Assembly (NCBI GenBank): GCA_965287045.1 | Contig: OZ336872.1 | Span: forward strand, 137,268,001 to 137,332,000 | Reading direction: 5' to 3' | DNA length: 64,000 nt | Source: Carcharhinus amblyrhynchos | Taxonomy: Eukaryota | Part shown: one piece after another, positions 4,496 to 53,300 of the stretch | How the letters are laid out: the number at the start of each line of letters is the position of its first letter | Position numbering within the stretch: position 1 is the stretch's first letter | Program-made: the position numbers and the translations under genes | The notes under the pieces: generated by a model | The model's input: only the letters and a program-made list of their open reading frames with translations | Told to the model about the DNA's origin: nothing | The model's database searches: none

Positions 4496-5183
4496 GGTCC
4501 CAGGGATCGAGCGAGGCCACCAAAGCTTGGAAACTGGGATTTCTGGCAGAATCCACCTCAAGGCAACCCAAACAGGAGGCTCTCTTCACCTTGGCTGGCA
4601 AGATTCGCATTTGTTGCCCATCATTAATTGCCCCTCCAGAAAGTGGTGGTGAATGTAACAGAGTGCCTCGTTCAGCTATTTCACATGGGCTGTTGAGAGT
4701 CATCCACATTGTTGTGGGTTTGGAGTCAGGTGTAGGCCAGACCAGATAAGGACGGCAGATTTCCTTCCTGAAAGGACATGAGGGAACCAGATAGGTTTTT
4801 ACAACACTCATACCAAGGAGAAGCATGAGGGAGCCGTTCAGTCCTTTGAGCCTGCTCTGCCGTTCATTTTGATCATCAGAGATGGTCTCACGGTCACCGT
4901 TAATCAGACTAGCTTTATTTTCCAAATTTTCTGAATTAAAAATTCCCCTGAAGCTATGGTGAGATTAGAACTCATGTCTCTTGTTTAATAATCCAGGTTA
5001 TGATTACTGATTCAGTAACAAAAACACAATGTGACTACCCTCCAATTCAGTTTGGTTCGGGGTTCTCGAACCTTGGTGTTTCCTGTCTCTTTCTCCTCCT
5101 TTTCTGAAATCGTTCCTGTTTTCTCTTTTTTCCCTCTCTCTCTCTCGCTCTGTTTTCCCACTCTCTCTCCACAATGTCTTCAG

Positions 5184-8200: not shown

Positions 8201-8948
8201 GATCTTTGCCCAGATTATTGTGGATGAGATTCTCGCGCCTTGAGGAGATTGGAAGGTTTATTTGTCTCTGTCATTTGTAACATAGTGCCTCCCCCCTTGC
8301 CAGTAATGACCGTGGCGAAGGTTTAATGCTCTCTCTTGTGTTTGGTTTCCATCTGAAAGGAATACAAACGGAAGCAGCTGGAGGAACAGCGACAGGCAGA
8401 GCGACTACAGTGGCAGTTACAGCAGGAACGCGCTTACCTAGTCTCCCTCCAGCAGCAGCAACAGCTGGAGCCGAGGGCTGGTGAGAAGAAGGCACTTTAC
8501 CACTACAAAGACAGCTTAAACCCGACTGACAAGCCAGCCTGGGCTAAAGAGGTAGGCAGCCTGATGGACATGATCGAGCTGGGTTTGTCCTCACTCCACG
8601 AGTGTGGACTGGGAATTGGAATTGATTGCGTCGTCAATCTGGGCCATTCGGCCCCTTTCATTCCCCTTGGCCGATGAGGTCTTGGGGGAGGGGGCGAGAA
8701 CTCACCCAGTGATGGTAAAGCCACAATCAAATACCACGTGCTTCCCGGAACCCGGGGGCACCCTGTTACATTGCAGTAAAGAACCCCCAATTTTATTTGG
8801 TGAACTGAGTCAGGAATGACGGCGTTTCCTGACATTCTCAGAACTTGGAAGGTTTTTATTCAAATTGGTTCCTTTGTATTCAAAATCTTCCCATTATTCT
8901 ATATGTACCCACTCATCTCCCTCTCCTGCCTTCACCCTCCTGCCCCCA

Positions 8949-10054: not shown

Positions 10055-13000
10055 CACATATCCCTCACCCGCCACTCACACGCTCACACATATCCCTCAC
10101 CTGCCACACACACACCCCCCTCACACTCCCTCACCNNNNNNNNNNNNNNNNNNNNNNNNNNNNNNNNNNNNNNNNNNNNNNNNNNNNNNNNNNNNNNNNN
10201 NNNNNNNNNNNNNNNNNNNNNNNNNNNNNNNNNNNNNNNNNNNNNNNNNNNNNNNNNNNNNNNNNNNNNNNNNNNNNNNNNNNNNNNNNNNNNNNNNNNN
10301 NNNNNNNACCCCCACCACACACACAAACACACACACACACACTCCCCTCACCACACACACACACACACACACCCACACCCACACCCCCCACACTCTCACG
10401 CACACAATCGTGTTCTCCTACCATTAATCACCTTATATTTCAATCGCACTGCCACCAATCAGAAAGCAAACTGACTCTTGTTTATACCAAAAAAATGTTT
10501 AATTTTATTAATTCCCCTTTTGCCCCGGCAGTTAGTCTTCAATGTTTGGAGCTGCTGGGCTTTATCCTGGTGGGTGCGCGGAGGATGAAGTTTTATCAGT
10601 GGGTGGAGTTGTTGATCTGAATTTAGAGAATGTGTAGCCAGGGTCCGTGCCAGGCCCAGGAATCTGAGCTGGACAGGACTGGGCGAGGGGTCTGGTCCAG
10701 AGCGGCCATCATCTGATTGGATGGTAGGATAGAGTGGAGGAGCTGAATCGCTCATTGACCCTCTGTTGACCCTGATGTCACGAGCAGCAGCGAGCAGCTC
10801 CCAACCCAAACAGGCCAATATGGAGCCTCTGTGAGTGATAGTCATCCCAAATCTGTGATGGGGGCCATTTCATCGGATGAGTTGCTGGACCCACCAATTT
10901 CCAGAATGACCCTGGGGTCACCAACCTATCAGTATGGTGGCTACAATTCTTGAAAGTGTCACGACTGAGATTGATTTATAGATTTTTGTTACACAAGTGC
11001 ATTTAGAACTCTAAAACCTAAATGGAATTGAGATACAGTTGTCATGCTGTAATGGCATAGTAGAACAGGTTTAAGGGGCTGAATGGCCTCCTGTTGCTTC
11101 TATGTTAGGAGGGAAGGAATTCTTATTTACAATTTGAAACCTCTGGTTTAGCAATGTGTCCCCATCACAGGCGATGTTTTTGGTGTCAGCCATGTCTGAC
11201 CAGTGTGAAGAATGTTCTAACGTTACTCTGGGTTTTTATCCCGGGTAGGTGGAAGTTATTTTGAACAAATAATTCTGTCATCCAAACCCAGGTACAGAAG
11301 CGATCGCTCAGTAATTCTCCTCGACGCCCACCCAAACAGGGAACACATTCCACTAAGTGGCCATCGTCCAATGATATCTCCGACCAACACCCTGCTCAGC
11401 AACCAGCACGCCGCCAGCAGAAACTTCATCCCGGTTTCCTTCCCTCCGCCCCGGTCAACAGACGAGGCTCACACCAAGCTGTGGCATTGCAGGACTCCAG
11501 TGTCCACACCCAGGCAGAAGGCGGGCAGAAGACGCATGCCCCCCTGGAGGACCAGTCCAGGCAGGCACGATCACGGGGACGGTTAATGGCCAAACAGCGG
11601 CTGCCACAGGATTTGACCTTTGGGTTTGGACCTAATGGAGTGGTGAAAAAGAATGTAAAGAGCTCCGTTGCGAATCCTCCAGCGCGCTCAGATGAATACA
11701 TCTTTACCTTTAGTGAAAGTGGGGTTATTAAGAAAAGGATTAAAGCTGCAAAACCCCTAGCTAACAGATTCACAGCGAAGCCGGATGGGGTGGTAGCCAG
11801 GGTTCCAAACGCTCCCAGAATCAGAGTGGATCCTGATTTTGATCTTGAAGATAAATGGTGCAATGAGGGAGAGGCAAGATCACTTTCTGCTGATGTCTCT
11901 CTCTCTCCAACATCTCCTCGTAGCCTATCTCCAGAGTTTCCTGAGGACTATCTATCACGTTCCTCCCCAGCTTCATTTCTTTCAGGCACGCAGCAATTTC
12001 TAGCTCACAGAGTGAATTCTGCTGAGGGCAACTTCTGTCTAAAGGTCCCTGCGGCCGCGCACTTCCTGTCTTTAAAAAAGATGGCCAGCGCTCCCGATCT
12101 TTCTGACTTCGGCTCCTCCTCTTCCGTTGTTCCTGATTCTCGCAACCTCAGTCGCTCAAATTCTGCTGACCTGCATTCCGTACGCAAGCCCCTCTGTGGC
12201 TCTCCCATTCCTGGAAGCTTCCCGTATGACGATGCTTTCTTCAGTAGCTCTCCCTGCCGTTCCCTAGAGTCTTCCCATTCCTGCAGCTTTCCCAACCATT
12301 ACAACACACTCATGGCTTCTGCCGTTCACTCTTCCTTGGAGCAATTGCCCCTCACACCTCCACGTGTAATGTTGGATGGCTCCACTCTATGTCCAGCACC
12401 CAAAGAACACGCGGAAGAAATGCGGAACGTTCCAGTATTAAGATTGGAAATTGAATCAGACGATTCCTCAGAGAGGAGAAAATATAACCCATATCCCCAT
12501 AACCCAATGAATGGTGACTGCTGGACCAGGCCTCTATCTCCAGATAGCCCTGACATTTCCATTTTCTCTCAGTCTTGTCCAGTGAGTAGTTTCCATCAGT
12601 TCCCCCTTCCTGGATCTCCCAGAAGCAGCCGTTCGGCTTCTGAAAACAGTGGCGTCAAACTCCCAACTCGATGCCACCGGCAGTCTCCTGAACACAGGAG
12701 CTTTAAATAGTCTTTAACTCCATACGCCTTTTGGCTGTTTGAATAAGCAGACATTGCTGGTCCCTCACTCATATCCGTGAATGTCTCCAAAATGGTTTCA
12801 GCACCGTTCCATTGATAATGTGCCTTGTTGTGCTCAAAGGCCAATTCTTCTGAGCTTTGCCCTTATTTCATGTTTCTCCTGGTTTGACTGTTGGTACTGA
12901 CACTTACAGCTTCCTCAACAACCTCTCCCATCTGGGTGTCTGCTCTCTTTCTGATTGCTCTGATGTTAGTCCTTGGTGAGCTCCTACTTTGGCCAGAGAG

Positions 13001-31000: not shown

Positions 31001-34000
31001 TCAAGTCTCATTGCAGAGCCTCCGCACAAAGACACAGTCCAACAACTCCAGTGCTGTACTGAGGGAGCGCTGTCCTGCCGGAGGTGCTGTCTTTTGATTG
31101 GAACAGTAAACAACGCCTTGCTTGCACCCTCCTGCCCCGCTCAGGTGGAGGTAGCAGCTCCCGATGGCTGTTTTTCACAGCAGGAAAATTCACCATGGTG
31201 TCAATCTTTTTCACCAAACAGTTAAACGAAATGAAATGAACTGAGGGACAAATTAAAAGGGGCAGCCCCCAAAAAGAAGGGAACAGTCCGAAACAAAAGG
31301 AAACAAATGGAAAGGAAACTTAAAGCGTCAAAGTGAAATGTGATTAAATGGGTTGATAATACACTGCAGCCCCTGCGGTGCCCAGCAGGCACGGAAGCCT
31401 TCAACAGTGCATGGGGACACTGCATGCTTCCTCTGCAGGGAAACTTGGCCGCCAACGTAGCCACGGTAGAGAGATAGACAGTTGGGTCAGATGACCCCCT
31501 TGGTCACCCGCTGCCTAGACCTGTTTATGGCAAGTTTAGCCAGGCCCAAGAGTAGGTTTCGCTGTGGTGTCCTGGTCAATGTTTATCCCGCAAGCAAAAT
31601 CGCTCAAACAGATTATTTGTTCGGCGTTATGCTTCTGTTTGTGGGATCTTGCTGTGCACAAACAGGCTGCTGTGTTTCCTGCATCACCATAGTGGCCGCG
31701 CTTCGACAACTGTTCCTTTGGTTGTAAAACCCTTTGCAACATCCTGGGAACAAGAAAGGTGCTACACAAATGCAATTCCTCTCTTCCTTCTGAAATGAAT
31801 TACGGTTGTATTCTGGGTCATGTGTCACATATTTGCATTAACAGTTAATAATCCACGCAGACCACCCATATTCCCAGAATATTTCCATCCTCCCAGGCTA
31901 CCCCACCTCCCCAACCTCCCTCGGTCAGTGAATACTGTCCAGCTTTGATGTATAGTTGGCATTAAGTTTGGTTATGATTGGATTTTCTGGGAATTTTCTC
32001 TGGGGTTCTGCTGGAGTCCCTGTGGCAGTTGCTGTCTGTCAGTGGAGGTGTTTCTGGAAGTTTCTTTCCCAATGAGGATGCTGAAATTACTCTTCCTTGG
32101 CTTTCACCCCAGTAATCCCGACCTGCGGAAGAACGAGAACCTGTTGGAGACGCCCCTACATCGCACCAGTAGTGGCAGTTCGTCCAGTTCCAGCACTCCC
32201 AGCTCCCAGCCCGGATCCCAGAGTGGATCCCAGAGCAGCTCCCAGCCCGGATCCCAAAGTGGATCCAACGAACGCAACCAAATCCGAGGTAAGGAGCACT
32301 GGGGAAGGGGAGGGGAGACTGGAGGGGGAGTGGGAGAGGGGATGGGGGAGTGGGGATTGGAGGGGGAGTGGGAGAGGGGATGAGGGAGTGGGGATTGGAG
32401 GGGGAGTGGGAGAGGGGATAAGGGAGTGGGGATTGGAGGGGGAGTGGGAGAGGGGATGGGGGAGTGGGAGAGGGGATGAGGGAGTGGGGATTGGAGGGGG
32501 AGTGGGAGAGGGGATAAGGGAGTGGGGATTGGAGGGGGAGTGGGGATTGGAGGGGGAGTGGGAGAGGGGATGAGGGAGTGGGGATTGGAGGGGGAGTGGG
32601 AGAGGGGATGAGGGAGTGGGGATTGGAGGGGAGAGTGAGGATTGGAGGGCGAGGGGGGAGTAGGGGAGGGGGAGAGGAGTGGGGATGAAGGAGTGGGGAA
32701 TGGGAATGGTGCTATTTGTAGGAAGGGTGGGAAAGGATGGAAAGTTTGGGGCGGTCTTTGGCAGCAAGGTGGTAAATGAGGTGTGGATGGGAGGTAAATG
32801 TGGGGAAGGGGAGGCGGTGCTGTGTGGAGCGGTGACCTGTGCGTAATGTGTAATGTCCCCAATTGCTGTGGTGATGAGGGACGGTATCGTGAGCTCGATG
32901 GCCTTGGAGATCCTGTGTTTGAAACTCTTAGAATGTTACCACACAGCAGGAGGCCATTTGGCCCATTTGTATCCATGCCAAGCGTTCTCCAGTTCTGCCC
33001 CCTCCCCACCCCCTTCATTCTGGGAGAACAGGGCAGTTGGAACGGTAAAGCTTGCTTATCGTCCCAGCTGGCCTGGGAGAAGGTATTCTGAGTGTAAAAC
33101 TGAGAGGTGTGCCACAGGAAAATCACCTCAGCCTCTGCTACTCCTTCCAGCGGTGAGACACAGGTGACCTCCTGAATGAGATTGAGCACGGCCACATCAA
33201 ACCACGGAATGAATAATCTCTTGGACAGTGAGTGCCAACATGGTAATGTTCTCCCTTGGCCTCTCTACCTCTCTCTGGCACAGTGGGTTAGCACTGCTGC
33301 CTCACAGCGCCAGGGACACGGGTTCGATTCCCGACTTGGGTCACTGTTTGTGTGGAGTCTGCACATTCTCCCAGTGTCTGCGTGGGTTTCCTCTGGGTGC
33401 TCCAGTTTCCTCCAAAAAATGTGCTGGTTGGGTTCATTGGCTGTGCTAAATTCTCCCTCCGTGTACCCGAATAGGCACCCAGAGGGGATTTTCACAGTAA
33501 CTTCATTGCAGTGTCAGTGTAAGCCTACCTGTGGCACTAATAAATAAACTTCAAAACTCTTTAAACACCTACCTCTTGACCAAAATTTTATGCACCTCTC
33601 TAAGTTGGTTTGCTGATTGCTGGGAGATTGTGTTACGTTGAAGGCGCTATACCAATGCAGGTCGCCGTTTCTGCAGCTCTCAGTGTTTGTGTTGTTGCAG
33701 GAACAGGCAAGCCTGAAGGATCACCAGTGCTTCCTCACGAGAGCTCGCGAGTCAAACCGGAAGAGGGGCGCGAACTGACCCGGCCTGGGAGACCTGCTGT
33801 AAGTATCCAACACGAGCTTATTCCAAACCTACCGCTGGAATCCACACATACAAACTCGCTAACATATCTACTCAGACATGCGTGCTGCTCGTAGAACGAC
33901 TCATTAATTATCCACCGGTATTCCTGTCTGGATCATTGATACCTACAGCACAGGAGAGCATTCGGCCCAAAGTGCCTCATTGAGAAAGAGCCCCATTGTT

Positions 34001-37000
34001 CTCCTATTCTCCTCCAAAGTGCTATACATTTTTCTTTCCAAATATAGAGTCTTTTAATGTTCCATAAGATCATAGAATGGTTACAGAAGAAGCTCGTTGT
34101 GTCTATGCAAAAGTAAATCAGGTGGTGCTGCTCCTCCACCCTTTCTCTGTCCGGCTGTTTATCCATTCCCTTTGGGATGCTGCTGTTAAATCTGCTTCCA
34201 CTGTGCTCTCGATCCAGGCCTTCCAGATCCTGACCATTCGCTGTGTTAAGAGATTGAGTCTGTTGGCTGTGTGACCACCTGAGACACAGTGCTCTCTAGT
34301 GGCTGCGTTCAGTACTGTGCTGCAATCTGTTAATTCAACCACCCCACCCACTGCCCACTTCCCACCCCCTTCCACAACAGAATGGAAACTCAGTAAAATA
34401 TCTGGAATTAAAAGTCTACCGATAACCGTGAAACCATTGTCGATGGTCGTAAAAACCCATCTGGTTCACTAATGTCCTTTAGGGAAGGAAATCTGCCGTC
34501 CTTAGCCCGGTCTGGCCTACATGTGACTCCAGACCCACGGCAATGTGGCTCTCTGTTAAAGGCCCCTCTGAAATGGCTGAGACACTCAGTTCCAGGGCAA
34601 TTAGAGATGAGTAATAAATGGCTGCTCTTACCAACGAGGTCCATAGATGAATTAGAAAAAACATTCTCCATTTTTACCTCTTTCCAGCGATTTCTTTACA
34701 GCTGATCTATCCCTTTCCACCATAATGACTGTCCCCCCGGTCTTGGAGAGGGTGTGGAGGAGATTTTCTGGAATGGTGTCGGAGACGAGAGATTTCACTG
34801 AATGTGGAGAGACCGGAGAAGCCGGGATTGTTCTCCTGAGAGCAGAGAAGGTCAGGGAGAGGTTGTTCAAGATCATGAGTAGTATTCACAGAGTCGATAG
34901 GGAGAAGCCTTTCCATTCACGGGGGGGGGGTTGGTAACAGAGTTGGCAAAGGACCAATTAGGAGTGAGCACCAGGATCTGGAACGTACTGCAAATTCAAT
35001 CCTAATGTTTAAGAAGGAGAACTGGAGAGATGTTTAAATTTGAAAACTGTGGGGAAAGAGTATGGAATGGGATTAATTGGATACTTCTTTCAAAGAGCTG
35101 GCACAGGCACGATGGGCTGAATGGCGTCCTCTGCTGTATAATCGTCACTCTGCTCCGATATTGGGTAATGAAGTGGATTATGTTCTTTTTAACTTCTTGG
35201 TTCCTCTAATTTGTTCGATGAATACATCCTGAAAACATTCAGAAAGGGGTGGGTGAAAACCCCATGTTTGAACCCCCACCCAGGCACCGAGGGCAGCCCT
35301 GAATGGAGGTGACAGGGCCCCAGGCGGCGGCAGCAGCTGGCTAGCCGGTGACTGCCCCGTGTCCCCTCTGTTCAGTGCGGCCTGTGGAGCGAGGTGTCAA
35401 TCAGACCTGTCACTGGGCAGCAACGGGCAGAAGGTCCGCCCACCTACAGCTGCTGGCCAATCAGATGCCGGCAGCCCTCATTGCCAAGAGAGGTTGATGG
35501 TTGCTACGGGTAAGGCACCCAACCGAGACCCAGGATCGCCATGGATTCATAGGTGAGTGATGATGGCGGTTGGGGTGGGGGAGGGGGTCATGAAGAGAAG
35601 AGGGTTGAGTGGGTTTGGCAGTTTGGGCAAGGGATAGCTCTTATTGGGTAACCCTCCCCACCATCTCCCCGACCCCCATTGCCGGTTCCACAGACAATCG
35701 GGGCCTTTAAAACTGCCACCACCTCAGGAGCCTATCAACATCTTCAATAGATTTAGCCGGCAAATACCAGCAGCAGGATGCAGCCCTTAAGCGAGCATAA
35801 ATTCCACCCCCCCCCCCCTTTTCTCCCCCGCCCACAACCCCGATCCCAAACCCTGGGATTGAGATAATCTCACTTCCTCCTTCCATCGGCACTGCCGGGA
35901 CCACAGAGCGGCCAGCCAACCTGATTGGCCAACAGCAGTCTCTGAGGTGGGACTTCCACCCCTCCCTCACACCGAAACCCTGTCCCTCTCCAGAGAGTTA
36001 ATGCGGGGGGCTGCTGCGGTGGAGGGATGCAAAGCTTGCTGATTCTTTAGCTGATGTGGTGAGATACCCCCACCAGCTGAAGAACCCTGCTCCAAGTCCC
36101 TGGACCGCACACTGCACGGATGCATTATCTATATTGAGCTTGTTAATGTTGAATAAATTGACTTCCTCTCTGGCTAAGGGGGCAGTTACAGGTCTCACAA
36201 CACCAGGTTAAAGTCCAACCAAATTATTTGTTAGTAAACTCACAAGCTTTTGGGATTTGCTCCTTCATCAGGTGAATGGAGAGTTCTGGCTCTGTCTGAG
36301 GCACAATTTGTTCAAGTTAATTAACATACAGAGTGTTGATGTGTAATTTTTTTTAAATTAATCCGATTCATGGCTTTGAACTAACATTTCTATTTTCTTC
36401 CTTTGTCTTTTAATCTTCTCTCTCCCTCTCTCTCTCTGTTTCTCTCTCCCTCACGGCTTCTCTTTGACTGTGACCCTGGGCTAACCTTGCCTTCCTCTCA
36501 GAGCTATAAGAAAGCAATAGATGAGGTTAGTGCCATCTATCATTTGGAAAGATAACACGGTGAAACCAGCAAACAAACCATGATGGCATTGTGAGCTTTT
36601 AATCTTATTTTTTGAAGAAAGGAGATTGAATTGTTAGCTCCCGGGCTGGAGATGTTTCTCGGGGTTTTCGGGGTTACGTGACTCCCACACTCAGTCACCC
36701 TTCCCGGTTGAATAGCTTTCCTTTCCAACTCCAATGTTTTGGACAAGGAAAGAAATATTCAACAAAATAAATGCTCAATGTTAAGTGTACCTACAGTGAT
36801 GTATCTGGTGTATCACAGCTTGGAACTGGATAGTATGTATGGCACAGAAACAGGCCATTCGGCCCAGTTGGTCCATGCTGGTTTATGTTCCAACGAGCCT
36901 CCTCCCATCCTACTTCATCTCACCCCATCAGCATATCCTTCAGTTCCCTTCTCCCCTGTGTTAATCGAGCTTCCCCTGCAATGCACCTCGACTGCCCCCT

Positions 37001-38369: not shown

Positions 38370-41300
38370 GTGATGGGGTGGGTGGTGGAACGGACGGTGG
38401 GCAATGGAAGATGACTGGGGAGAACCAATGTTACGACGTCATGCATGAGCAACCTGGATTATGATAGAATTGACGTGTGGAGTGTATCAACCCCCTGCTC
38501 AGCCCTCTGTGCACAGTGACTACCCAGGCCTTGGCTACTGCAACTCCAACAACAGCCTCCAGGGGTTGCCCCAGAGCAGTGTCCCCCTCCTGTGCATGTG
38601 TGCACACCAGATTGCCAAAGCACAGCACATCAAAGATCCCACTAACAATGTAAGAGAACATTACTCAACCGAGCCTTGGCCTGTGTGACAGATTAAAGTG
38701 GATACTACCTGCAGGGGGGCTAGGCAGGCTGACTGACTCAACGTCCTGTGTGCGCTGTGTAGTGTTTGGCAAGGATAGTGCATGGATTAGAGGGTGTCGT
38801 GTAAGGAACAACTGTTCCTTTGGTTTGAATGTTAACTAATCATCTGCTTTGGGGAGATTCTGTAAGGAATGTGTAAATTTCCAGCAAAAGTTTGTGGGAG
38901 ATTTGTAGCTGTGTGTTAATTTGAGAGAGTTGCCGGGGGGGGGGGGGTGTCTTTCTGGGTAAGGTGACTTTGCCAGCAGCACTGGGGGGGGTGAGTTTCC
39001 CCTGTGTCTATCCTCTGCGTAGACTGCTGAGTGACCCCCAGTTATTCCATCAAAATTTCCCCTCCCCTTGATTTGTGTCACTGGCTGTTGTGTTCCTCCT
39101 AGGGGTCACCACGGATTCGGAATTAATTGATTTAGGAAGAGGAATCCAGGTCTAAATACAGGCCAGATTTAGTCCCCTTTTTTGCAGTCAGCAATTGCTG
39201 GAGTTAATACAATTTTTTTGAAAGGCAAATGGTTCAATTTTTCTCAGATCATCACTGGTTGGTTGTTTCTCTGAGAATGACTCCCGGATTTAGACATACA
39301 GTTGACACGGGGCAGGTTATATAATCTGCTTGGATTCCATTGCGGAGAGAGGGTGGTTTAACTGAGGCTGATGAAAGGATTGAACAGGGTAGATGTGGAG
39401 AAAAGTTTTCCTCTAGCCCAGAGCGTGGAGGCCGAACATTAAAATAGATTGAGGTGGCTTCAGGGCGACCTGTTCACACCATCCGGATCTGGGAACTCTC
39501 TCCCCAAAAGACGATGTTTGAGTTGGGGGGAGTCAGTTGAAATTGATGGACTTGAAACAAGGCAGAGGCTGTAATTACAGGGGAATTCTCACGCCTGCGA
39601 GCTGCTGTGGAGAGTAAAAGCAAAGTCAACCTTTCATGAGGACATTTGTGGGGAAAAGGCATTTAGGGTTTCGGAACCAGATTGACTAATGGGAGTGAGG
39701 AGCAAGTCAAGATCCAGCTGGATGATAGAATGGGCCTGCGGGGTGGACAGGGTCTCCTCCTGTTCTGATGTTGTCTGTTTTTGTCTGATTTTCCTATGTC
39801 ACAACTTGGTGTTGTGAGACTTCTCACTTTATCATTATTGAAAGGTGCAATGTCCATAAAATTCTTAAGATTTTTCTAGATTCCAGTTGGTCATTGCGTA
39901 CGAGTGTTTAATTCATCTCAGCTTTCAGAAAAACGTGGACTGAGACTGAAACTGAAACTCCCAGCACGGTTTGAGCATTTACGCCTGTAACCAGCTCCCT
40001 TTTCTCTCTTTCCCAGTGCGGTGGTGAAGAGTTTCACTCCTCATGGGGTGAGGGAGAGTCACTCAGGAGATTGAAGTGTTGGGGGGAGTGGGGGGGTGGT
40101 GTTAGGGCTGTTACAGAGGATGGAGTGTGAGGTTGGGTAGAGGGGTTTAGGTTGGGTGTGAGGGGTCCAGGGCTGGGGGTAGGGGGTCCCCGATGATAGT
40201 TCAGCCATGGAGAGATTGGATCTTGTTCACACCGTTTGGCCACTGTCCTGGGTGTTCATTTTTTGTCAGAAAAACACAAAGTCCCCGTCATGGAATAGAA
40301 TCTATTGCAGTGCAGAAGGAGGCCATTCAACCCGTCGAACCTGCATCGACACCAATCTCACCTATTCCCGTAACCCTACTAGTCCCCCTGACACTAAGGG
40401 GTAATTTAACATGGCCGATCGACCTAACCTGCACATCTTTGGAGTGTGGGAGGAACCCGGAAGACACGGGGAGAATGTGCAAACTCCACTTAGACAGTGA
40501 CCCTAGCCGGGAATTGAACCCGGATCCCTGGCGCTATGAGGCAGCAGTGCTAACTCACTGTGCCATTGCACTCCCCCGTTTGCACTTTTCAGACATGGTG
40601 GTTGAATAATGAGGGAGGAGTTACCTTGTCTCGTTAACTCCCTCTCACCCCAACCCACTTCCCCAGTTCAGAGCATTCACAGAATGATGCACTCTCAATG
40701 CTCCACACAAGATTCCTCCCACCCCTCGTAGTCTCATCCAGTCAGCACATCCTATTTGATAGGAAAGGGAACCATAATCCGTCAGACATATTGCCAGCAC
40801 TTGTGCCTAGCTGCAGCTGCGTTAGTTTGACAATGCTTCCATCCACAGTTCAATCTTTCCTTGTGGTCATATTTAGCTATCACTTCAGGTCATGCTGCAG
40901 TGATGAGGCTCCATTTTAACAAGGTTAGGATTAAAAGACGTGGGCCGCGGATAGAGAAACATTTCCAGCTAAAGACAGAATTGGACTCTACTGGGGACCC
41001 AAGTACGGGAAGCTCCAACCTACGCTGGCGATGAGCAGGGTATAGAATTACTCCTGGTTCTGTACGATATCCAACATCGCTTCACTCCCAGAATCGAGCT
41101 CCATGTGGGTCAGTCAATTGAAAGCATTGTGCCGGCCCAGTGAGCTGGAATTAGTGAGCCACTGCTGTCAGGATCCACAATAGAAAGTCTATTTTACCAC
41201 AAACAGAAATGTATTAATCGGCAGAGTCAATTTAAACAGTCTCAAAGAACAGCAGCAAACTGAACTCGTGACCAACCCACGGCAAACAGTGAGTGGAGGA

Positions 41301-44300
41301 TAGTGAAGTAATTCTAAAGTAACAGCGCAAATTTAACTCTAGCCTTTGACAGCCTCACTGACACCAGGTTTAATTAAGGGGAAAATTGATCCATCATCTC
41401 CATTCTGCCTGGGATTTGTCAGCTAATTTCACAATGTCTTTAGCCCTCCCTTTTGGGGAAGTGTTAATCAGGCAGTTTGCTTCTTAGCTGTGCCAATCCT
41501 ACTGTTCTGCTGAAGAACCCAACTTTCTGGTCATTGAGGGGGCGGAGCTGTCCCTCGTGGGTTTGAAGAAATGGCGCAGACATCTTCAAATTCAAACAAC
41601 GTTTCCATTGACTTCTGGGTAAAGCTTGGACAAGACAACAACATCACTGTGTCAACCTCTGTGACCTTCCAGTGTCTTTAGATTGGTCCAAACTGTGGGG
41701 ACAATCGTTACGGGGAGAAGGCAGGAGAATGGAGATGAGAATCATATCAGCCATGGTTGAATGGTGGAGCTGAGTCGATGGGCCAAATGGCCTAATTCTG
41801 CTCATTTATCTTATGGTCAAAGCTGACAGCCTTGTGGATTACTGTGAACTGATCAGTTCTTGGAATATGCTGCACAGAGGGCATCCTCCCTGCCTTTGAA
41901 CAGCCTGTCCATTCCAAGGGCAGCACAGTGGTTAGCACTGTTGCCTGACAGCAGCAGGGACCCGGGTTCGATTCCCGGCTTGGGTCACCGTCTGTGTGGA
42001 GTTTGCACATTCACTCCGTGTCTGCGTGGGTTTCCTCCGGGTGCTCCAGTTTCCTCCCACAATCCAAAGATGTGTGGTTAGGTGCATTGACCATGCTAAA
42101 TTCTCCTTCAGTGTACCTGAATAGGCGCCGAAGTGTGGCTACTAGGAGATTTTCACAGTAACTTCATTGCAGTGTTAATGTAAGCCTATTTATGACACTA
42201 ATAATTAAACATTAACAATTAACCCCGTACTCTATTCCCATAACCCTACAAACTTTTCCTATTGAAATATATACCATAATGTCTTTGTGAAAGTTATTAT
42301 TAAATCTGCTTCTGCCATTTTTTTCAGGCAATACATTCTAGATTATATCATGTTTGCATTTTTAAAAAACGTCTTCCCATCTCCCTTCTGATTTTTTTTC
42401 CCAATTATTTTAATTGCCCCAGTTTCTTGGGGCTGTCTCAGTTCATATATCATATAATTATTCATTGTTGGGATCTGACACTATTCAGTCGCACTGACCT
42501 GGAGACTTGGTGAATAGTCGCGGTATGATTGAGGTGTGCAGAATAAACCTGTCTGAGTTTCTTTGGGGGTTTTTCCGTTGCTATGTTTTGTGGTAGTCAT
42601 TTTGTCAACTGGTTTCTTTCTCCCTGCACCCTCTCCCCATGCTGACCCATCGGTCACTAATGTAGGCAGAAATGGTAAGACTAACGCTTTGCAAATGCTG
42701 GCTTCTAAACACCTGCATGCTTTATGTGCGAGACCGATTGGCCAATTCCGTTTGAATGAGGCTATGTCTGCTTTCATGCTTCAGGTGTGTTTGTGGAGCT
42801 GAAATTGTGCATGAATACCACCCCCAAACCACGCAACTGTTCGAAAGCCAATCGCAACACCCTCTGTTAATGATGCTGCTCAAGGGACCAGTTACAATCC
42901 GAGGCTCACCTCCCTACCCCCTGTTTGGTGTTGTGTGAATGATTCATTGACTGGTGCTGTATCGACTGCACTGGCATTAAGGCAGTGCATGCTGGGTGTG
43001 TCTGTGACGTTTACAATGAAAGATAATCAACTGGCTCTGTTTACATTGAGTTTCACAGGAAAATTGCATTAGAAACTCTTTGCGGTTTTGGAACTGACTT
43101 TGAAGTGAATCAGACCAGAAACCTGGATTTCAATTCTCGCATATTTGCCCTGGACTCATGCAGCAACAAGATTTTGCATTTATATAGCACTTTAGGGCAG
43201 TAAAGCTAAAATGCTTTATAGGAGCACTACCAAACTACACAAGGGGAAATTACGATTGGTGTCTGTTGGTGGGACATCCGGTACTGCCCAAACTTTAGAC
43301 AAGACTCACAAAGCCAGTATCTTTGTATTAAAGACGTAACTTTATTTAAACCAGTGACCACCAGAAGTTGATCAAAGCATTAAGTAGCTCTGATATAGAG
43401 CAACAAAACTGATGAATCTAATATATACAATCATAAACACACCAATTAGAGCTTTTTTTATCAATCATTCCTGCCTTTCAGTAACTTTAAATCCGTCATC
43501 TTCAGGATACACAAATCAGCAATAATACCTGTCAAATACTTTAGCCAATCGAATTCCACCCCTCAGCATAATGGTGTTTTATAAGTCGGTGAAATCCAGA
43601 AGCTGACTGCTGTCCTCGCTGACCCCGTTCCCTGGTTTCCGAGTAAACTAAGACACTCATCTCAGATCAACATTCTCACAGGTCACTGTTTAACCAGACT
43701 CACTCGTGACATCACGTCTGCTCACCAGTCCCATCCTGTCCAGACGGTGAATAAACCCTGCTGGTGAAATAAGATTAAGTGTTCTAAATGTTCCCCCATC
43801 CGAAACTTTACTGATAAAACTTGCACATTTCCAAGGCCCAAATATTCTCTTGAAATATGGTTTTGTCCTAATGACTTTTACCACGAGGCCTTGCGGGAAA
43901 ATGCTTTTGGATTAAAGTGAACAATATTCCTTAGGAGCAATAATAATACATTCAAAATATCAGCATATATGTTTTACCATCATAATCACTCATTTGAATC
44001 AATTACTGCATTTCGTATGTGCAAATTGCTTCTTGGTAGTTCATAAATATATTTTAAAAGTCACTTAACTGAGTGCTGCTAGTTCTGTCAGTACCTTAAG
44101 GTCTATTGGTTTAAAAACTTACCATCCCATTAGGGCTTCTGCTTGCAGTGTTGTAAAGCAAAGAGTTAGATTCTAGGTTACATTGTGAAGAGAGAGTGAG
44201 GTTTAGGGAAGGAATTCTGGAGCTCGGGAGACTGACTGAGTAATGAAAATTTGGAATGTGTATGAAACTCGAATCCGAGAGACGCAGGGAGCTAGCAGAG

Positions 44301-50300: not shown

Positions 50301-53300
50301 TGACCCAAGCCAGGAATCGAACCCGGGTCCCTGAAGCTGTGAGGGAGCAATGCTTTTCACCGTGCCACCGAAGGAGATTGTTTGTCAAGAATTGAACATT
50401 TTTTTATCTTTTAACCTGCACGAGACACAGAATGATATAGAGAGGTTGTAGCCTGCTCCATGTTTTCTGCCCGTTTTCACTTGTCTCTCCCACTGCTCCC
50501 CTGGTTGACTGGATCTCCCGAGTAGCTGTCATGATCGCTGATCTTTTCCCAAAGAAAATGATTTCAGTTGCATCTTCATCTTCATCGCTCCCTCCCATAC
50601 ACCTGACATCCAGGATTCGAATAGCATAACTCCAGTGATAGACAGTAATGCCCCCTTAGAAATATTTCCAAAATAATACCTACCAAAATAACAGTTGGGC
50701 TTGGAAATTGGATAAAATGTTGAGGAATGCTGAAAACTTGTGGTCCTCTCTGAAGAGGGAAGGGGAAACATCTCTTTACTCTTAATTCAAGCTCACTTTC
50801 TGATATCTTGCTTTGTGTCTTTGCTGAAGAAACTCCAATTAGCAATAGTTCTTCCTCTTTGATTGCCACAGCTTTGCTTTGTCTTGTTTTGTTTCTTGCG
50901 GTTATCGGTTGTGCGTTGGGTTCCCAGCTTTTGAGGAGTTTCGTTCATGTATGTCTTTGTCCCTTATTTTCTTAGGACTTGACAGCTTTGGCCAAAGAAT
51001 TGCGGGAACTGCGTAACGAAGACTCATCCCGGCCTCCGATTAAAGTCACCGACTACTCTTCGTCCAGTGAGGAGTCGGAAAGCAGCGAGGACGAGGAGGA
51101 GGAGGAAGAGGAGGAGGAAGATGCAGAAAATGAGGCACAGGATGGGACTGTCCCAGTCAGTGATATTCCCAGGATAATGTGAGTCCTAACTACCACTTCA
51201 CCCAACTAAAGAGTCCACAAAGAGCGCTCGGTCATGGATAAGCTCCAGCTGGGATTGGTTGTGTTATCAGATTCCTAATCCGGAGACTGGGACTAATGAT
51301 CTGGTGACACGTTCAAACCCCACCAAGGCAGCTGAGGAATTTAAATTCCGTACTGCAGTGGAGGGGATTCCCTCTGGATTCCTGCCCATCCCAAATTGGG
51401 ACACGCTACTGCCATACAGCGCCAGGGACCTGGGTTCGATTCCCCGATTGGGTCACTGTCTGTGAGGAGTTACTAAGGATGTGACCACACAGGAGAGGAA
51501 ACCGAGGAGATTTATAAAGATGTTGCCAGCAATGAAAAATTCCAGAGGCTGGGGCTATTTTCATTAGAATCGAGGAAGCTGAGGGGAGTTTTAATTGAGG
51601 TGTAGAATATTCAGAGAGACTCCGATCGAGTGGGTAAGAGAGGCCGTTATCTCGGGGGCCCGAGAGTTAAAGTAACCCTCAGAAGGATTAGAGGTGAAGT
51701 GAGGAGAATTTCTTTCACCCAGAAGGCACAAAGTCTGGAACTTTCTGCCTGAAAAGGGGAAAGGGGCAGAAACCCTCATCACATTAAAATAAAACAGCTG
51801 CATTAACACCTGAGATGCTGCAACCTACAGAACTAGGCATCAAGATCGAGAAGAAAACGGGATTAGACTGTCACCCAGCACCGACACAATGGGCTGAATG
51901 GCCTCCTTCTGTGCCACGCATCTTCAATGCTTCTAATCTCTAATTCTTAGTCTTAGTGCGTATAACCCTGTGAAAATCCCCTCGCATATTCGGGAGAATG
52001 GCGAGTTCTCCGTGGCCAACATTTAACTCTTAAATCCTGGGGTAAATCTCTCAATATTGTCCGCCGCCGGAATTGTCACAGGCCGGATGGAGGTTTGACG
52101 GATCGTTGAGAGATCCATTGATGTTGGGCGGGAATTTCTGGTCCTGGGGTTGGGGGGACTGGGAAACCCCATCATCGTCACAACAATCTGGCCATTTATT
52201 ACATTGCTGTTTTTGTTTTGGATCTTGCTGTGCGTACATCGATTGTTCTGTTTCCCCATTACAACAAACGGGGATTCTTTCAAAATACCCCAACTGCTGT
52301 AAAGCACTTTGAGAAGTTGTGAAAGGCACAATCAAAGTTCCAGTCTTGTTTTCCCTCCTTCCAGCCTTTCTCTCTTTCTCTCTCTCACACTTTCTCTCCT
52401 TCCTTTCTGTCCGTTCCCACTCTTTCTCCTTTTATCACTCTCTCTCCCTTCTCTTTCTCTCCCCTTTTCACTCTCACTTTCTCTCCTTTTCTCTCTCCTT
52501 TCTGTCTCTCTCACTTTCTCTCCTTCCCTTCTCTCCTTTTCCACTCTCTTTTTCTACTCTTCTCTCTCTTTCTTTTCTCTCCCCATCTCTCTCTCCTTCC
52601 TGTTTTTCCTCTCTTTCCTTTCTCTCTTTTTTTCTCCTTCCTTTCCATCCATTCCCATGCTCTCCTTCCTCTTTTCTCTCTCTCCATTTTTCTCTCTCTC
52701 CCTCTCGTTCTTTTCTCTCCTTTCTCTTGTTGTTAATGGATAATTGGTTCAGCAGCTCCGGACTGAATTGTAAGTTAATTTCCTGCTCTTGAGTCTGGGT
52801 CCTTACTTTGCAGGCCAACCTCCACAGCGGGCAGCGGTGAGCAGTATAATGAGGAGTATGGCGTGGGACTGGTGGGCAGGCAAGAGGGAGCTTTACCATC
52901 CGATCACTACAGCAACACTTCAGGAGACGGCACCCTGATTATCCGAGAGGTATGTATCCAGTCCATAACTGCAAGGGTTGTACAGAAAAGATCATTAACA
53001 CATGACTTCATATAGTTTGAAAAGAACAAGCCAGCCATTCACTTTTTCACGTGTGTAACTAAGAAGAAATTGAGCAAGTTGGTCGAGGGGTACGGGGCCC
53101 AGAGTGCAGTGAGTTACTGAGTTAGCACGTGGATTGAGGCTGGATGGAGTTGGATGAGGTGAGATTGAATTTGAGAATGAGTCCAGTGGAGGAAGGAAGT
53201 GGGAGGTGGGTGGGAAAAACCGTTTGAGGCCAAAACTGCCTCTGCTGATTGCAATCCCCTGAACACATCCGTCACATCCATCCTGAATCCGAGTTGTTGG

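Follow-up and report, generated by a model that had tools for sequence, protein, structure and literature searches.

A candidate 9-nt microexon in Carcharhinus amblyrhynchos TNIK, the counterpart by position, phase and sequence of the GEM/EEL microexon of other vertebrates, in tandem with the known 24-nt microexon

Position, phase and sequence mark the nine bases at 42666-42674 of the window (the whole 64,000-nt stretch of Carcharhinus amblyrhynchos DNA that was analysed) as what corresponds in the shark to the GEM/EEL microexon of TNIK; they are very probably spliced in this species. The best joint explanation, which we hold to be likely, is a TNIK GEM/EEL counterpart included in neural cells under SRRM3/4 with help from RBFOX proteins and belonging to an ancient tandem pair. 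The exon reads tag/GCAGAAATG/gtaaga on the + strand in phase 0-0, encodes Ala-Glu-Met (AEM), preserves the frame and lies inside the 3-27 nt size range of SRRM3/4-dependent neural microexons. An earlier note on this DNA had placed a 9-nt AG/GT candidate in phase 0-0 at these positions, with ACTAAT at 42656, ACTAAC at 42680 and TGCATG at 42714, 42808 and 42986, and the sequence bore out all of them exactly. The features concerned are the following.

33701-33798, + strand: upstream TNIK exon ending ...RPGRPA, with phase 0 donor GTAAGT
36502-36525, + strand: 24-nt microexon SYKKAIDE, bordered by CAG and GTTAGT, UGC at -14
42613-42638, + strand: displaced pyrimidine tract (-53 to -28); 80% pyrimidine at -60 to -25, 57% at -24 to -3
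42640-42646, + strand: TGCTGAC, a putative SRRM3/4-type UGC at -26 that overlaps the likely branch point CTGAC
42656-42661, + strand: ACTAAT, candidate QKI-type hexamer at -10 to -5, the same in 2/2 other organisms
42666-42674, + strand: 9-nt microexon GCAGAAATG (AEM), TAG acceptor, GTAAGA donor, orthologs GEM/EEL
42680-42685, + strand: ACTAAC, candidate QKI-type hexamer from donor +6
42714-42719, + strand: TGCATG (RBFOX type) at +40; the paralogous 9-nt exon of MAP4K4 has one at +48
42808-42813, + strand: second downstream TGCATG motif, +134
42986-42991, + strand: third downstream TGCATG motif, +312
50976-51178, + strand: downstream TNIK exon, beginning with the DLTALAKE motif, phase 0 junction

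The 17.2-kb intron contains five short candidates that keep the frame, and of these only 42666-42674 has the 9-nt YAG/GTRAG arrangement. The bare arrangement (YAG, 9 nt, GTRAG) occurred 15 times on the two strands of the window, and one of the 15 had three downstream TGCATG and two adjoining ACTAAY motifs. The Poisson chance of at least three TGCATG per 350 nt is 1e-4 per site; because a second TGCATG trio (38442, 38593 and 38779) shares the intron, the cluster is weaker than this figure and no proof alone, and orthology, rather than motifs, is the decisive evidence for the exon. The second trio surrounds a 24-nt AG/GTAAG candidate at 38626-38649 (HIKDPTNN), which resembles shark repeats elsewhere in the window and probably arose by chance. 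At the 9-nt exon itself, an inner acceptor CAG (42667-42669) would yield a 5-nt frameshifting exon. The branch point is presumably CTGAC, with its A at -21; ACTAAT (-10 to -5) was ruled out for this role because it lies too close to the AG for a branch point. The exon had also been described as lying in an island free of transposable elements, and comparison with about 447 kb of own-genome DNA agreed, with no repeat cover at 42225-44000. Repeat-derived contigs aligned at 42303-42413 and 43018-43150, with a clean island at about 42416-43017, and 42500-43050, with one genomic match, is single-copy.

The window gene is TNIK, a GCK-IV kinase. Matches to the downstream exon were named TNIK, the closest being from sharks (99% to Mustelus), and in a CNH tree (341 columns, 28 rows) the window gene grouped with chimaera TNIK (99/97) within the TNIK clade (100/99). 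Four paralogs were found in the genome, three of them besides the window gene, on contigs C128, C10 and C4. The C10 copy grouped with MAP4K4 and the C4 copy with rows that we label NRK-type; the C128 copy was sister to TNIK with modest support (90/81 in a careful run, 64 in a quick run) and was called MINK1-like from its SYKRAIGE exon. SLC2A-type sugar-transporter exons (L016 1362-9704) lie about 40 kb beyond the last TNIK exon on the same strand, which we take to be the expected TNIK-SLC2A2 gene order. Within a TNIK intron, at 11265-12707 (+), about 480 codons run on without a stop. Roughly the first 124 of them match an exon of shark and ray TNIK models (52 collected proteins match, up to 185 codons in Hemiscyllium); about 350 further codons remain open, and a donor-like GTGAGT lies near 12582. 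The frame may represent an alternative or terminal exon of unusual length.

Orthologous proteins were compared at the junction that follows the 24-nt exon. In the first set, 6/259 proteins carried a tripeptide there, GEM in the chimaera (Callorhinchus XP_042194900.1, a TNIK model) and in Tinamus, and EEL in the eel. When the chimaera junction was used as the query, 119 of the 120 top matches had both exons (51 GEM, 68 EEL), a figure that is biased because the query itself contained both. GEM models came from cat, pig, turtles, gecko and birds, and EEL models from teleost tnika and tnikb. The RefSeq GEM insert (Callorhinchus, Tinamus XP_010215294.1, birds, turtles, gecko, cat and pig) reads x-E-M after SYKKAIDE, as does shark AEM; it has Gly where the shark exon has Ala, and it is known from predicted models only. 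Of the 585 proteins collected, all predicted models, 383 had a parseable junction: 173 lacked any insert, 86 carried the 24-nt exon alone, 123 carried the two exons together, and one was an odd prediction.

At the DNA level, a lack of AG/GT conservation would have refuted the earlier note, and this outcome did not occur: AG and GT were both unchanged in the genomic contigs of 2/2 other organisms. So were the exon itself, its whole donor and every motif, the nearest differences being at 42662 and 42688. The evidence is weak because the two organisms are closely similar (97-99%), so that all 49 motif bases would escape change in both with a chance of about 0.14. Over a pre-set span, the exon +/-100 nt, conservation did not significantly exceed that of the flanks (p 0.23 and 0.13); a span chosen post hoc gave p 0.01 for conservation, in one organism only.

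A counterpart is already catalogued in zebrafish tnikb (DreEX0080180), and as an exon the shark sequence is therefore no new biology. The two agree in gene, intron, phase and length, and the zebrafish exon also lies between the 24-nt and DLTALAKE exons. According to the supplement of PMC12626424, this 9-nt event is classed as MIC_Neural, with a neural PSI of 25.92 and a PSI of 0 in each of the ten remaining tissue groups that had data, muscle included; its inclusion climbs from 48 hpf, its dPSI in srrm3/4 (eMIC) mutants is -35.59, and it is given no event ortholog in human. The supplement of PMC7821500 lists a 9-nt exon of zebrafish brain, GAGGAGCTG, which encodes EEL, and the two records describe one exon because, from one assembly to the other, four coordinates are shifted by the same amount, 145,041. 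The zebrafish exon differs from the shark exon in encoding EEL instead of AEM, and inclusion and srrm3/4 dependence have been measured in zebrafish only. The earlier description of the exon as unannotated therefore fits sharks and rays, where 0/123 models have it, and fails elsewhere, since RefSeq models of many other vertebrates include it and VastDB lists it in zebrafish. The 24-nt microexons of TNIK and MINK1 (HsaEX0066242 and HsaEX0039306; mouse Tnik exon 21 in PMC10721184) are well known, and 36502-36525 is the direct ortholog of the TNIK one, which is SRRM4-responsive in human cells.

As to control, SRRM3/4 would act at the upstream UGC and the 9-nt exon would be included mainly in neurons, RBFOX proteins would help from the downstream UGCAUG sites, and QKI might repress the exon in glia or muscle via the two bracketing ACUAAY sites. 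Neural SRRM3/4 control of the shark exon is probable. In the arrangement that PMC13174390 describes for SRRM4, a weak 3' splice site is separated from the pyrimidine tract by a UGC, and the 5' splice site is strong; the 9-nt exon, judged by eye, matches it, with UGC at -26, a pyrimidine tract set back and the strong donor ATG/GTAAGA. UGC sits between the pyrimidine tract and the acceptor in 4/4 own-genome microexons. In human cells, SRRM4 overexpression raised inclusion of the MAP4K4 9-nt, MINK1 24-nt and TNIK 24-nt exons by 42.8, 58.0 and 51.6 PSI, respectively, and the MAP4K4 exon already had a PSI of 50.7 in control cells (event data of PMC7935315). To judge from a figure legend in PMC13174390, Map4k4 seems to serve there as an SRRM4-independent example, and from this and the control PSI, SRRM4 is not the sole input for the MAP4K4 paralog. 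For the shark exon, RBFOX help is rather likely from its motifs, and QKI repression is a tentative guess, made because two ACUAAY sites bracket both splice sites. The RBFOX/QKI code proposed in the earlier note is thus incomplete; its RBFOX part is plausible, and the best-supported regulator, SRRM3/4, was missing from it.

That the exon is real but chiefly run by RBFOX and QKI, and included in brain, muscle and heart alike, is unlikely. The three TGCATG and two ACTAAY motifs are all unchanged in 2/2 other organisms, and the paired ACTAAY motifs, 20 nt apart, fit the spacer and consensus of bipartite QKI elements. Position maps for QKI and RBFOX have been described, with upstream QKI binding repressing and downstream binding activating (PMC9984406), and published tables assign the 9-nt exon of mouse Map4k4 and the 24-nt exon of mouse Tnik to a 'Neuro-Muscular' cluster. 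Set against these points, the zebrafish ortholog has a PSI of 0 in muscle and loses 36 PSI when srrm3/4 is missing, the MAP4K4 9-nt exon has no ACTAAY in the 200 nt before it or the 350 nt after it, and the Qki5 target given for Map4k4 in PMC11406248 is exon 16, not the microexon.

The paralogs bear on the age of the exon. The MAP4K4-like intron on C10 contains TGTAG/GGGGATGTG/GTAAG, encoding GDV (L007 8857-8865), which shares 15/20 letters and a downstream TGCATG with the TNIK exon; unlike TNIK, this intron has no 24-nt match and no ACTAAY. The excerpt of PMC8203206 gives rat MAP4K4 GEV as a cloned 9-bp exon, exon 21. This exon (HsaEX0037668 in human) is paralogous to the TNIK one, lies at the same junction and is SRRM4-responsive, but its human form has substantial basal inclusion in non-neural cells. 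Homology with MAP4K4 GEV, which the earlier note had suggested, is supported by intron, phase, length and sequence frame. Two further in-frame candidates were seen on L007, a 6-nt one (cag/ATTGCA/gtaagt, 8680-8685) upstream of the GDV exon and a 33-nt one at 5084-5116, bordered by CAG and GTAAGT and picked out by eye. The 24-nt exon is present in the MINK1-like intron (29/32 letters), which, unlike TNIK, gave no 9-nt match (best 12/20). Neither exon was recognisable in the NRK-like gene, which says little because the linker is remodelled and the location of the upstream exon is missing. There (L031 1216-1363, C4) KVTDYSSSS is kept and DLTALAKEL at the exon start is gone, with both microexons.

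A clade of TNIK and MAP4K4 was rejected (p-AU 0.021; 17/28 rows kept, long-branch and redundant rows removed), which makes it likely that a homologous 9-nt exon is older than the separation of these two genes and later disappeared from MINK1. A hagfish TNIK-like gene, for which neither placement was rejected (p-AU 0.14 either way), has the 24-nt exon in RPGRPA-SYKKAIDR, with DLTALAKEL missing after it (P0440 / P0581); the 24-nt exon is thus common to TNIK, MINK1 and the hagfish gene. The 9-nt exon was seen in 0/3 hagfish models that span the junction, and a GIR difference between hagfish isoforms was ruled out as a homologous exon, since some 19 residues separate it from the junction, on the upstream side. 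The 9-nt exon is likely older than the vertebrate duplications that made TNIK, MINK1, MAP4K4 and NRK, and the tandem pair was likely present at least in the TNIK/MINK1 ancestor, MINK1 then losing the 9-nt exon; for the whole family, an ancestral pair is possible. The paralog pattern and the tree therefore support as likely the idea, already voiced in the earlier note, of an ancestral state. About evenly balanced, in our judgement, is the fuller reading that an SRRM3/4-controlled 24 + 9 nt pair preceded the duplications and was later partitioned, TNIK keeping both exons, MAP4K4 the 9-nt exon, MINK1 the 24-nt exon and NRK neither, with the TNIK 9-nt exon lost or silenced toward mouse and human and kept in cats, pigs, birds and fishes.

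Nine bases hold little information, and the 9-nt exon was not seen in the hagfish models (0/3), in MINK1 or in the NRK-like gene; the TNIK and MAP4K4 exons could then be independent or gene-converted, and the tandem state TNIK-specific and not ancestral. We regard this as improbable, slightly more so than chiefly RBFOX/QKI-run splicing, given the shared intron, phase, length and TGTAG/G..GA..TG/GTAAG frame, the shared G/A-E/D-M/V chemistry and the TGCATG at +40/+48.

It is very unlikely that the 9-nt exon is a vestige of an ancestral exon no longer spliced in sharks and rays, as perhaps in mouse and human TNIK. This would agree with its absence from all 123 elasmobranch models (the 24-nt exon is spliced in 33 of them), with its first residue (A instead of G) and with the mammalian records: the MicroExonator tables searched list the 24-nt exon in the mouse Tnik intron and have no 9-nt row, and the zebrafish record states 'no event ortholog' for human. 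No AEM-bearing fragment occurred among 62 short proteins searched. On the other side, splice sites, frame and motifs are intact here and in 2/2 other organisms, the chimaera model has the exon, and annotation pipelines often overlook 9-nt exons. The presence of the exon in cat and pig models, set beside the mouse table and the human event list, suggests loss in some lineages.

The coexistence of 9-nt and 24-nt exons in one gene, which the earlier note had claimed, was borne out (36502-36525 and 42666-42674), whereas mutual exclusion, which it had allowed, is contradicted by the 123/383 parseable models with both exons in tandem. Mutual exclusion can practically be dismissed: in zebrafish brain each exon was found as a single insert at one shared parent junction (the 9-nt exon with coverage 75, the 24-nt exon with 11; supplement of PMC7821500), but models with the tandem exist, VastDB entries give the 24-nt donor as an upstream donor of the 9-nt exon, and there is no steric block between exons 6.1 kb apart. 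The two microexons would yield four in-frame forms, with 0, 3, 8 or 11 added residues. No protein model with the 9-nt exon alone was found among the 383; the single-insert records, read with the method description in PMC7821500, point to 9-nt-only transcripts, and all four combinations are likely in zebrafish. The inserts would enter directly before the DLTALAKE motif and lengthen or re-phase a probable amphipathic helix, suggested by the leucine spacing of the motif, and in this way, tentatively, they would tune partner binding. A counterpart of the motif, RPE/DLDxLAxEL, is present in invertebrate Misshapen proteins (nematode, beetle and others). A PDB search with the start of the DLTALAKE exon gave 0 matches at E up to 10, and the sections of PMC10272126 and PMC7109135 at hand map no binding partner to the motif.

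No paper discussing the TNIK 9-nt exon or the paralog partition was found, though subscription journals, VastDB and supplements may hold more. The available supplement text of PMC12868881 and PMC12064062 gave no match, and in PMC13281805 and PMC4387716 the string 'tnik' occurred solely inside the names of authors.

With this exon, which can be read from raw sequence, the annotation of shark and ray TNIK is corrected. At one junction, the three drug-target kinases TNIK, MAP4K4 and MINK1 each have a microexon that responds to SRRM4; seen from the shark genome, these microexons are pieces of one likely ancestral pair. The finding points to an unstudied, neuron-tuned DLTALAKE motif and offers a natural four-state test of insert effects. 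If the partition reading is true, the family would offer a clean example of a neural splicing switch shared out among ohnologs.
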